DNA of 64,000 bases, taken from positions 320,001 to 384,000 of the forward strand of contig JBBRLI010000001.1 of NCBI GenBank assembly GCA_038231455.1, written 5' to 3'. The translations under genes and the position numbers were made by a program. The notes under the pieces are model-generated. The model saw only the letters and a list, made by a program, of their open reading frames with translations, had not been told where the DNA came from and searched no databases. Positions 1-56,340 of the stretch are shown here, in pieces. The stretch is from Vulcanimicrobiales bacterium (GTDB taxonomy: Bacteria; Vulcanimicrobiota; Vulcanimicrobiia; Vulcanimicrobiales; Vulcanimicrobiaceae). The first letter of the stretch is position 1. Each line of letters begins with the position of its first letter.

Positions 1-253
1 TGTCGCTCCGCCGGTGCTCGCCATAGCGTAGCGCGTACCGGAGCGGGATAAGATCGATGAAGTGGTCCGCGTGCATATGGGTGATCACGACCGCACCGAT
101 GTGGTCGTACTCCATATGCAGGCGCAGGTTGCCGAGCGCCCCGGTCCCCAAATCCAAGACGATCGACTGTTCGTCGTCTTGGATCAGGTACGAGCTGCAC
201 GCACGATTCGGCCGGGGGACCGATGGACTCGACCCCAGGACCGTCAGTTGCAG
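1..253 (-). CDS. MBL-fold metallo-hydrolase (RNase Z/BN-like), 3' end outside the window; start uncertain (CTG at 253 or ATA at 268)
   Basis: Hand translation: LQLTVLGSSPSVPRPNRACSSYLIQ...VLDLGTG...VVITHMHADHFIDL, containing the HxHxDH motif. Not in the ORF track. Confidence 0.85.
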   Translation of the reverse strand, partial: MQLTVLGSSPSVPRPNRACSSYLIQDDEQSIVLDLGTGALGNLRLHMEYDHIGAVVITHMHADHFIDLIPLRYALRYGEHRRSD

Positions 254-264
254 TGTCGCGGCGT

Positions 265-717
265 TTATAGCGATGCTAGGACCTCATCCGCGTGACCCTC
301 TACGGAGACTTTGGGCCACACCTTGGAAATAGTACCGTCGGGCCCCACAAGAAACGTGGCCCGTTGAACGCCCATACTCTTTTTCCCGTACATATTCTTC
401 TCGACGATGACCCCGAATGCGTCACAAATGTGTGAAGCGGCGTCGGCAAGGAGTGTGAACGGCAAGTCGTACTTTGCTTTGAACTTTGCTTGGGCTGCCT
501 CGGAATCACGGGAAACCCCAATGATGACAGCGTTTTTCTTCGCGAATTTGGCGCTGGCGTCCGCAAACTGCGACGCTTCGTTCGTTCAACCGGGGGTATC
601 GGCTTTTGGATAAAACCAAAAGACGAGCGGTTTGCCAACGAGATCGTGTAGGCGGACCGGGGTGCCGGTTTCATCGTTTACGGTGAGATCGGGGAGCTTT
701 GCACCAACATCGAGCAT
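265..717 (-). CDS. bcp: Peroxiredoxin Q/BCP, probable selenoprotein (in-frame TGA at 586-588, codon 44)
   Basis: Hand translation MLDVGAKLPD...FWFYPKADTPG*TNEASQF...LPFTLLAD...RATFLVGPDG. The TGA sits at the peroxidatic Cys of the YPKxxTPGC motif, and the frame continues into the track ORF 265..465. Confidence 0.9.
557..576 (-). promoter_or_regulatory. Putative bacterial SECIS hairpin
   Basis: mRNA reads UGA-ACGAACGAA-GCGUCGCA-GUU-UGCGGACGC: an 8-bp stem with a one-G bulge and an apical loop starting with GU, 17 nt after the UGA. Confidence 0.65.
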
Positions 718-737
718 CTATCGGGCCTTTCGGATCG

Positions 738-2447
738 CTATGAAGGGACGGGTTCTGCCGCGCGAACTTCGACCGCGGGCTTCGTGCGAAACTGGGAGAG
801 CGGGACAAGAAAGAGTAACCGGTCGTGCGGCAACATTTCATCAAACGCGTTGATATGGACGAACGCGGCACCACGCCACACCGCAAGCGGGATGCAATGG
901 TCGGCCGGGGGCGGCGCCGGGACGTCGCCCTGCAGTCGTTCGCCCACGGTGTAGTCGTCATCTCCAAACGAGATCCGTCCGCGCGTCCCCGGAAATCGGG
1001 ACAGACCGGCGAACGCCGGCGCGGCGAGGGCGCTGGTTGAGAACGTCGTGGTAAAGCCGAACTGACGCGCGATCGAACGCGCAAATGCATCGTCTTGAAC
1101 GCGCATGACGACTTGCAGATCGGGATTGCGCGCGCGCGCGCCGAGGCCCACTTCGAGATTCGAGGTGTCGCTATCGGTGAGCGCGATGAGGGCCGCGGCG
1201 TGCCGAAGATTGCAAAACGAGAGCGTCGTGTCGTTGGTCGCATCGCCCGTGAGCAGATCGAAATAGCGATTGCGCGAGAATTCGATCGTCGACTGATCGG
1301 GGTTGGGATCGATGACGACGACGGGCTTCTTTTGCGTGAGTAGATACTCGATCACGCGCGTCCCGACGTTACCTGAGCCGCACACGATGATATGGCCCTT
1401 GCGGTTGATGCGGCGCAGACCTTGCATCGCGACCCATTGCGCGCGCGTGAGCGCCGAGGTCAGTAAGGCGACGAACACGCCCGAGAGCGTGACGCCAAAG
1501 AACATGGTACCGACTGCGACCATCTTCGCCCACGGCCCCGCATCGAGCGGTGTGATGTCGCCGTAACCGACCGTCGTGATCGTCGTTGCCACGAAGTAGA
1601 GGGCCGTGATCGCGTCTTTCTTGAGCGCGAACGAAAAGAAAATCGTCGCAGCGATAAAGGTCAACACCGACACGAGCACCACGCGCGCAACGATCGGATC
1701 GATTCGCCGCAGCGAATCCCGACGTCGGGAGAGCCAGCGTGTGAGGCGCGACTTGATCGTGCGCCGCTCGCCCATTTCTGTCGGCTTTTGGCGTGACTCC
1801 GCAAGATGGATAAACTTCGAGAAGAGCACGATGTCGTCGTCCGGATCGATCTTCGCTTTGAGATCGTACACCGCGCGGCCATTGAGTCCGACCACGCGAC
1901 CGCTCAGATTTTTCTGCGCGTCGGCGACCGAACACGGGACGTGGATTCCAAACTCCGTTGCGCGTCGCTGCGAGAATCCGCACAGGTCGCCCTCGATCTC
2001 GGGAAACTGCAGGCCCGAAAAACACTGCGGATCGATCGCGGAACCCGTGAACGTGGCGGCCGCATGCGAGGCCAGCGACACCGTCGAGCAGTTCGGCAAA
2101 TTCTGTTCGATCTTGCGCCCGAGGGTCCGATTGAACTGGCGCAGCACGACGCGGATCTCCGGATTGAGGTCGCGGGCTTTCAGGGCGACTTGCAAGTTGA
2201 GCTTGTCGTCATCCGAGAGCGACATGATCGATGTGCCGTGCATGACGCCCGCGGCGCGCAGGGCGTCGTAGTCGTTGGGAGGGAACGCGATGTACGTCAC
2301 GTTCATCCGCTCGCACTTTGCCGCAATCTCCGCATCGTGTGCCCATAGCAAAGCTACACGATGTCCTTGCGTCCCCGTAATCTCTTCACAGACACGGATT
2401 GCAAGCGCATCGCCACCCACGACGATAATGAGAGGGACCCCGCTCAT
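738..2447 (-). CDS. Potassium channel family protein with two TrkA-N/RCK domains
   Basis: Pore motif TTITTVGYGD between two TM helices; Rossmann motifs IIVVGGD and IIVCGSGNVG. Confidence 0.85.
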   Translation of the reverse strand: MSGVPLIIVVGGDALAIRVCEEITGTQGHRVALLWAHDAEIAAKCERMNVTYIAFPPNDYDALRAAGVMHGTSIMSLSDDDKLNLQVALKARDLNPEIRVVLRQFNRTLGRKIEQNLPNCSTVSLASHAAATFTGSAIDPQCFSGLQFPEIEGDLCGFSQRRATEFGIHVPCSVADAQKNLSGRVVGLNGRAVYDLKAKIDPDDDIVLFSKFIHLAESRQKPTEMGERRTIKSRLTRWLSRRRDSLRRIDPIVARVVLVSVLTFIAATIFFSFALKKDAITALYFVATTITTVGYGDITPLDAGPWAKMVAVGTMFFGVTLSGVFVALLTSALTRAQWVAMQGLRRINRKGHIIVCGSGNVGTRVIEYLLTQKKPVVVIDPNPDQSTIEFSRNRYFDLLTGDATNDTTLSFCNLRHAAALIALTDSDTSNLEVGLGARARNPDLQVVMRVQDDAFARSIARQFGFTTTFSTSALAAPAFAGLSRFPGTRGRISFGDDDYTVGERLQGDVPAPPPADHCIPLAVWRGAAFVHINAFDEMLPHDRLLFLVPLSQFRTKPAVEVRAAEPVPS

Positions 2448-3006
2448 GCCCCACCCTTCAACGCAAGACGCTCATCCGCTTGCGTATCGGCTGATCGAAC
2501 TTCTCCACGACACGCGGGGCGAGATCATTGAAGTGGGGACGGGCCGCGGCCGCAATACCCGCGCGCTCGTCGCAGCGGGCTTTCCGGTCGTCGAGATCGG
2601 CGAAGACGTCGCCTACACCCAGCTGCCCGGGCGCGGATTCATCGGAGCCCTCGCCACGCACGCCTATTTGCATGGAACGCTCGCGAAACTCCGCATCGGC
2701 TTCGCGGAACTCGCTCGCGTGCTGGCGCCGGGCGCCCCAATCGCCGTCACCCTCGGCTCGATCAACGACGCGCGCTTTGGCCTCGGAGAACCGTACGACG
2801 AGGTGACCTTTGCGCCGGGCGACGGCCCCGAAATCGGGATTCCCCATGCGTTCCTCGACCGGGACGGCGTAACCGACGTGCTGCGTCCCTTTGGGATCGA
2901 ATCGTGCGCGGAGGTTGCCGTCGACGCGCTCGTGGGGCGTTGGGCACACGAGGATGATGCGGTCACCGGAAAAGTTCATTGGTTCGTCGTGGCGCGAAAA
3001 CGGTAA
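2446..3006 (+). CDS. Class I SAM-dependent methyltransferase (start uncertain)
   Basis: Motif I IIEVGTGRGRN; ELARVLAPGA post-II motif; C-terminal HWFVVARK. Confidence 0.7.
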   Translation: MPHPSTQDAHPLAYRLIELLHDTRGEIIEVGTGRGRNTRALVAAGFPVVEIGEDVAYTQLPGRGFIGALATHAYLHGTLAKLRIGFAELARVLAPGAPIAVTLGSINDARFGLGEPYDEVTFAPGDGPEIGIPHAFLDRDGVTDVLRPFGIESCAEVAVDALVGRWAHEDDAVTGKVHWFVVARKR

Positions 3007-55389: not shown

Positions 55390-56340
55390 CTACGCCGGAA
55401 CCGCCGTCGTTTCGTGTGCGGCCTCGAGCGTTTCGAGATACTTTTCCGCTTCGAGCGACGCTTTGCAACCCATACCGGCAGCCGTGATGGCTTGCTTGTA
55501 ACGGATGTCTTGCACGTCTCCACCGACGAAGACGCCGGGGATATTCGTCGTTACACCATCGGCTGATTTAATGTAACCCGCATCGTCGAGGTCGAGCTGG
55601 CCTTGGAAGATGCCGGTATTTGGATCGTGGCCGATTGCGATGAACATCGCGTCGGCATCGAGTTCCGAGCGTTCGCTAGTCACAAGGTTACGCAGGATGA
55701 GCGCGTGTGTTTTTTCTTCGCCAAGCACTTCTTCGACGGCGGTATTCCAGATAAACGAAATTTTTGGATGCGCGAGCGCCCGGTCGGCCATGATTTTACT
55801 TGCGCGCAGGCTCTCGCGACGATGGATGACCGTTACCTTCGATCCGAAGCGCGTGAGAAAGAGCGCTTCTTCCATCGCCGAATCGCCGCCGCCGACCACG
55901 ACGATGTGGCGTTCGCGGAAGAATGCACCATCGCACGTGGCGCACGTCGAAACACCGCGTCCGCGCAAGCGCGCTTCGCCCGGAATATCGAGCCAGCGTG
56001 CACTCGCGCCCGTCGCGACGATCACCGAATCGGCGGTGTACTCGACGTCGCCGGCCCACACGCGCAGCGGGCGCTGCGTCAGGTCGACTCTGGTGACGTC
56101 TTCGTTGTGGATTTGCGATCCGAAGCGCTCGGCTTGCTTGCGGAAGTTTTCCATGAGGTCAGGCCCCATGATGCCCTCGGGGAAGCCCGGGAAATTTTCT
56201 ACCTCGGTCGTGAGCATCAACTGGCCGCCGTACATGTATCCCGCAAAGACGATGGGCGCGAGGCTCGCGCGGGCCGCGTAAATCGCGGCGGTGAGACCGG
56301 CGGGGCCGGAGCCGATGATGATGACCTTGGAATGTTGCAT
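55390..56340 (-). CDS. trxB: Thioredoxin reductase
   Basis: IGSGPAG, GGQL, VENFPGF, CATCDG, VGGGDSAMEEA, QAITAAG. Confidence 0.97.
   Translation of the reverse strand: MQHSKVIIIGSGPAGLTAAIYAARASLAPIVFAGYMYGGQLMLTTEVENFPGFPEGIMGPDLMENFRKQAERFGSQIHNEDVTRVDLTQRPLRVWAGDVEYTADSVIVATGASARWLDIPGEARLRGRGVSTCATCDGAFFRERHIVVVGGGDSAMEEALFLTRFGSKVTVIHRRESLRASKIMADRALAHPKISFIWNTAVEEVLGEEKTHALILRNLVTSERSELDADAMFIAIGHDPNTGIFQGQLDLDDAGYIKSADGVTTNIPGVFVGGDVQDIRYKQAITAAGMGCKASLEAEKYLETLEAAHETTAVPA

Follow-up and report, generated by a model that had tools for sequence, protein, structure and literature searches.

A selenocysteine-containing peroxiredoxin, PrxU, was reportedly described from Eubacterium acidaminophilum by Sohling in 2001. 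Reviews cite PrxU of this organism as an experimentally verified example (PMC9312934, PMC13188914), and the same sources include Sec-Prx (COG1225 (Bcp)/PF00578, motif TxxU) among the verified prokaryotic selenoprotein families (PMC9312934 Table 1; PMC13188914). For the Sargasso Sea set, 43 Sec-Prx sequences are given in PMC1088965, and PMC1794560 counts 12 Sec-Prx genes with 5 Cys-to-Sec events, so that repeated switching itself is already known. As a family, Sec peroxiredoxins of the Bcp type have long been in the literature, and the enzyme type is known.

The DNA analyzed here is a stretch of 64,000 nucleotides from a Vulcanimicrobiales bacterium (contig JBBRLI010000001.1; hereafter the window), and on its minus strand, at 265..717, it very probably carries an intact gene whose product is a BCP/PrxQ peroxiredoxin with selenocysteine. 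The predicted protein resembles the Sec-Prx of COG1225/TxxU in its fold family, its PxxxTxxU motif, a UGA with a candidate SECIS directly downstream, and the existence of widespread Cys homologues; it differs from them in its host lineage, in having no resolving Cys, and in a coupling between Trp at -10 and Sec. With PrxU it shares the Sec at the peroxidatic position, but it scores 42.4 bits on the NF040737 peroxi_PrxU model (cut-off 270, model length 233), which places it in a different subfamily. The best solved relative is the 1-Cys BCP/PrxQ 5enu_A (E 1.1e-39, residues 3-149; matches to solved BCPs reach residues 3-150), which likewise lacks Cys both at +5 and in alpha3 and carries the same LCxxF Cys, whereas its catalytic residue is Cys and its -10 residue Tyr in place of the predicted Sec and the Trp of the window protein. 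Literature searches, covering main texts and a minority of subscription journals, returned no report of selenocysteine for Vulcanimicrobiota/Eremiobacterota and, within the same coverage, nothing relevant on selenocysteine in BCP or on Trp/Sec covariation. Annotation of the gene restores a missed antioxidant enzyme, an incremental gain since the enzyme type is known.

An earlier note on this DNA had proposed a complete 150-residue frame from ATG 717 to TAA 265, with a single internal stop, TGA 588-586, replacing the catalytic Cys in FYPKADTPG*, and translation bears out both points. With the TGA read as Sec, the frame gives 150 residues, and the TGA (586..588, minus strand) is codon 44, at the peroxidatic position of PxxxTxxU; the motif here is P37-x3-T41-x2-TGA44, in the local context WFYPKADTPG*TNEAS. 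The table 11 ORF list contains just a 66-residue C-terminal piece of the frame. A PF00578 (AhpC-TSA) match of 122.6 bits (cut-off 26) extends over residues 4-132 and spans the UGA. In the NCBIfam profile search, the top models were PrxQ (151.4 bits) and PRK09437 (126.5 bits), with all others at 50 bits or below, and the protein is nearest to PrxQ/BCP among the Prx subfamilies; since both scores lie under the equivalog cut-offs of NF053650 (260) and NF006960 (140), it falls outside these two named equivalogs. Arg119 (361..363, minus strand), identical in the five PDB alignments listed, is the conserved residue that we take to be the active-site Arg of peroxiredoxins. The gene is flanked upstream by a potassium channel/TrkA-domain protein (738..2447, minus strand), separated from the BCP start by 20 bases, and downstream by a metallo-β-lactamase (MBL)-fold hydrolase (2..250, minus strand) that runs past the window edge. 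A promoter scan over window 1-3000 found none.

RNAfold predicts a SECIS-candidate hairpin at +10..+29 after the TGA (557..576, minus strand; -9.6 kcal/mol), in which a lower stem of 5 bp is followed, past a single 3' bulge at 562, by an upper stem of 3 bp that carries a GUU loop at 568-566. The hairpin with a loop G at +18 that had been claimed from the sequence is thus present in the fold, but its stability alone is no better than chance. Among 200 dinucleotide shuffles, 114 fold as well as the window hairpin (z +0.34; +0.34 to +1.16 over four windows), and under a synonymous null 10% of 5000 recodings match it with G+18 in the loop (p 0.10). Hairpin stability as stand-alone proof of Sec was rejected on these results. 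Conservation of the hairpin had also been put forward as a check, and across homologues the hairpin does track the TGA: G is found at +18 in 47/47 TGA genes vs 52/82 Cys genes, the stem that pairs +10..+16 with +29..+23 is perfect over its 7 bp in 28/47 vs 0/82, and a loop G combined with a fold energy of -9 kcal/mol or lower is seen in 34/47 vs 5/82, the mean fold energies being -10.95 and -5.85 kcal/mol, respectively. The gene's own synonymous null is beaten at p<=0.05 by 17/47 TGA genes vs 10/82 Cys genes, and G+18 lies outside the best-fold loop in 10 of the 47 family TGA genes. Ala at +10 is enriched in the TGA genes (34/47 vs 8/82 Cys genes) because the stem forces it.

A selABCD system had been predicted for this organism, and the genome, which is 93.7% complete, contains the full set of selA, selB, selC, and selD. 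selA was identified with E 5.6e-132; selB scores above its cut-off and adjoins selA on contig C28, selD, on contig C7, itself contains an in-frame TGA, and contig C33 encodes a UCA-anticodon tRNA-Sec (71.6 bits vs 47). The codon directly 5' of the TGA in the window gene is GGT, for Gly43 (589..591, minus strand). GGT precedes the catalytic codon in 43/45 family TGA genes vs 15/71 Cys genes matched by pattern; this context is weaker in the metagenomic set (56/120, among the matches listed). A T precedes all seven candidate Sec codons of the genome (four GGT, two GTT, one CAT) and 65 of the 477 ordinary TGA stops that close its long ORFs. In this lineage, Sec insertion may follow a 5' context rule that calls for a T before the UGA.

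BCP matches were found in 138 of 151 family genomes and selA in 131 of 151, both tallies including unpublished genomes, and selenocysteine use is, as judged from the distribution of selA, the rule in the family. The best-matching labeled relatives are Ca. Velthaea, Ca. Eremiobacteraeota, Vulcanimicrobiota, Ca. Baltobacteraceae, and Ca. Aquilonibacter, pointing to a host that probably belongs to Vulcanimicrobiota (Eremiobacterota). We analyzed 129 of the 150 listed matches after dropping 12 from unpublished genomes and 9 that were duplicates, fragments, or weak. Alternation between Cys and TGA among orthologs, raised in the earlier note together with the opposite case of a TGA unique to this strain, is clearly seen: the catalytic codon is TGA in 47 genes, TGC in 62, and TGT in 20, related genomes being non-independent samples in these counts, and TGA is the sole stop type inside the family matches, among the matches listed. 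The TGA genes span 46 genomes; 43 genomes have the TGA form only, 76 the Cys form only, and 3 have both. A metagenomic search with the TGA motif added at least 120 loci, 119 of them distinct. selA-positive genomes hold 46 of the 47 TGA genes, the exception being a genome that is 62% complete (G093), and where a genome gave no selA match, Cys is encoded in 15 of 16 BCP genes. The Cys form is not merely due to loss of the Sec machinery, because 67 of the 82 Cys genes sit in selA-positive genomes. Among the 28 larger family loci, to which the neighbor comparison applies, the potassium-channel homologue lies beside BCP in 21 (10/10 TGA, 11/18 Cys) and the MBL-fold homologue in 25 (7/10 TGA, 18/18 Cys); the same genes flank both forms, so in the main the TGA and Cys forms represent alleles of one locus.

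It is next to impossible that the TGA stands for a Cys codon turned into a stop, in a pseudogene or through an assembly error. A single base converts TGC or TGT to TGA, the hairpin by itself is not significant, and two Cys-bearing BCP-like paralogues in the genome could cover a loss, but recurrence at the same codon in the 47 family genes and in at least 119 distinct metagenomic genes effectively refutes a pseudogene. The frame, moreover, stays open for about 106 codons past the TGA, and the gene of a sister genome (G056), at 94% identity, retains it. Against an assembly error, a contig assembled independently from run X1 (depth 12.3) matches positions 100-1200 of the window without a difference, though X1 is possibly the source of this DNA. 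UGA-reading tRNAs for Cys or Trp exist, and the codon might be decoded as one of these residues through a changed code or a special tRNA; we give this reading hardly any credence. No support for it was found in the genome, where TGA closes 477 ORFs of at least 400 codons and is for that reason an ordinary stop elsewhere, and where ARAGORN detects a single UCA-anticodon tRNA, called SeC, with a full-length match to Rfam tRNA-Sec.

Two further alternatives accept the selenoprotein origin and concern how well, or how, the enzyme would work. The gene could descend from a true selenoprotein with a hairpin, altered at +22..+24, that works poorly and allows little full-length enzyme, which we consider very unlikely. 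At these positions the window hairpin departs from the 7-bp family form and, in the register of the family, retains five of the seven pairs. Among the differences listed, positions 562-564 distinguish the window from G056 and from contigs of runs X2-X4; the G056 hairpin takes the 7-bp form, at -11.9 kcal/mol compared with -9.6 kcal/mol for the window form. The change nevertheless closes the GUU triloop with three base pairs and leaves a bulge on the 3' side, and the identical dot-bracket occurs in 21 of the 118 metagenomic Sec genes listed, where it is one of the three commonest folds (21, 21, and 20 cases). Bacterial SECIS limits given in PMC13188914 are a loop of 3-9 nt with G and then G/U at its first two positions, a distance of 16-37 nt from the UGA, an MFE of -7.5 kcal/mol or lower, and an upper stem of 4-16 bp. 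With its GUU loop, a distance of 17 nt from the UGA, and an energy of -9.6 kcal/mol, the window hairpin stays inside the published ranges for these three features; its upper stem is of borderline length, counting 8 bp across one bulge or, if the bulge ends the stem, 3 bp. The other alternative, that Sec is inserted and Cys98 resolves it through an atypical Se-S intramolecular bond, is unlikely. As the earlier note had stated, residue 98 (424..426, minus strand) is the only Cys of the protein, and position +5, the site of the alpha2-type PrxQ resolving Cys, is occupied by Ser49 (571..573, minus strand, in the 5' arm of the hairpin). Retention of Cys98 in 33/47 Sec genes and 76/82 Cys genes would favor a resolving role, but 12 of the 45 full-length Sec genes have neither Cys98 nor any other Cys after the Sec, and none of these has a Cys before it. 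Cys98 also aligns with the LCxAF Cys of solved BCP chains, including BCPs with a separate alpha3 Cys, and is probably not resolving; the PrxQ resolving positions reviewed in PMC4749874 are alpha2 and alpha3, and the same source puts PrxQ proteins that lack a resolving Cys at about one-third. A resolving Cys sought at +5 and +30..+42 is absent from 129/129 family genes, the window protein having Ser at +5 and Lys at +36. The 1-Sec peroxiredoxin that had been proposed therefore holds as the predicted enzyme type, since a resolving Cys is absent and Cys98 is missing from the 12 Sec genes. Among the matches listed, 54/119 metagenomic Sec-BCPs still carry the resolving Cys of position +5, so that UxxxxC and 1-Sec types both appear to exist.

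For the 1-Sec peroxiredoxin, established Sec biology predicts that SelB and Sec-tRNA would bind the hairpin and that UGA 44 would be decoded as Sec; without selenium, translation would leave a 43-residue fragment. By analogy with peroxiredoxin chemistry, the selenolate, held by Pro37, Thr41, and Arg119, would reduce H2O2 or organic hydroperoxides and be converted to a selenenic acid, which would in turn be reduced by an outside thiol, most likely that of thioredoxin together with thioredoxin reductase. Thioredoxin is our best guess for the reductant because trxA lies directly before selA-selB (G000:C28:19696-19992), trxB is present, and gshB, gshF, and bshC were not found in the 93.7% complete genome, in which mshC scored under its cut-off. 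A thioredoxin reductase is also encoded within the window (55435-56328, minus strand), and two glutaredoxin-domain proteins in the genome are alternative reductants.

The residue at -10 from the catalytic position, Trp34 in the window protein (616..618, minus strand), separates the two forms of the family: Trp goes with Sec, being present in 46/47 Sec genes, and Tyr or Phe goes with Cys, in 82/82 Cys genes. In a reduced set of 72 sequences, this column has the strongest association of any (Cramer V 0.97), followed by SECIS-coded positions at 0.72 and 0.60. Outside the family, Trp(-10) occurs in 46/119 distinct metagenomic TGA genes among the matches listed, in 0/76 Cys sequences from named genomes, in 0/149 diverse Cys representatives, and in 1/120 close Cys proteins, though the query for this last set itself carries Trp. 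Across these collections, Trp(-10) is almost absent from sequences without predicted Sec; since 73 of the 119 listed metagenomic Sec genes are without it, Trp does not appear to be required for Sec. At -8, Phe is found in 32/119 of the listed metagenomic Sec-BCPs vs Tyr in 148/149 Cys representatives, the metagenomic search pattern having permitted just Tyr or Phe at this position.

For a quick tree on 138 columns, the catalytic position, -10, and +1..+11 were masked and two short genes dropped; the tree places 12 Sec/Cys changes in the family, of which 3 are forced by well-supported branches, the 138 columns giving little resolution. A single Sec clade was rejected (p-AU 0.00042; 72 rows, quick tree, LG+G4), and the nearest non-congeneric relative of the window gene is a Cys/Tyr gene at 74%. 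In an independent-pairs test, the 3 pairs on well-supported branches show Trp following Sec in 2.7 (sign test p 0.25, short of significance), the perfect stem in 1.4, and G+18 in 0.9. The Trp/Sec coupling is solid as a correlation among these sequences and unproven as co-evolution. There was no sign of a recent one-donor transfer of the Trp-to-SECIS block, the synonymous codons at -9, -7, and -3 being mixed within the Sec genes; the Trp/Sec pattern could also result from a short block that recombined long ago. An AlphaFold2 single-sequence model reached a pLDDT of 53 and was not used.

We tentatively propose, as a possibility that we would not yet favor, that one locus underwent several Sec/Cys switches, each of them accompanied by a Trp/Tyr change at -10 and by a U-ending codon before the UGA, and that Trp is a second-shell residue fitting the active site to selenium. 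If this were true, the family would offer a natural set of matched Sec and Cys enzymes for what proteins change in order to use selenium. Co-evolution at -10 would provide one testable residue for the question of why exchanging Cys and Sec seldom is neutral, and hidden Sec-BCP genes could be flagged by a Trp at this position.

The genome contains at least six more candidate Sec genes, comprising selD, a second peroxiredoxin, two PrdB/GrdB-like genes, one SelL-related gene, and one DUF442-like gene; these six were chosen by motif or homology from a de novo scan that returned 370 candidates, mostly noise, and the list is incomplete. Two of them form an adjacent pair on the minus strand, a PrdB/GrdB-like gene (UxxC) at G000:C7:114851-115213 followed by the second peroxiredoxin (TxxU) at about 115390-116050. 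The second PrdB-like gene (UxxC) and the SelL-related redoxin, at G000:C6:32896 (+) and C6:64418 (+), each have one in-frame TGA at a Cys-type position. The DUF442/BLH-phosphatase-like gene (G000:C1:81018-81422, minus strand) has its TGA at the Cys of an HCxxGxR motif; its product scores 28 bits on PF04273 and under the cut-off on TIGR01244. PF04273, TIGR01244, and DUF442 are absent from the main text of a 2026 selenoprotein review, and a literature search limited to main texts was empty for them; judged from its sequence, the gene possibly represents a selenoprotein family so far unlisted. Its hairpin is strong (-19 kcal/mol, GGUC loop), 6 of 12 family matches carry one TGA (the unpublished genome G051 left out), and the position of the TGA was confirmed in 3 TGA loci and 2 Cys loci.
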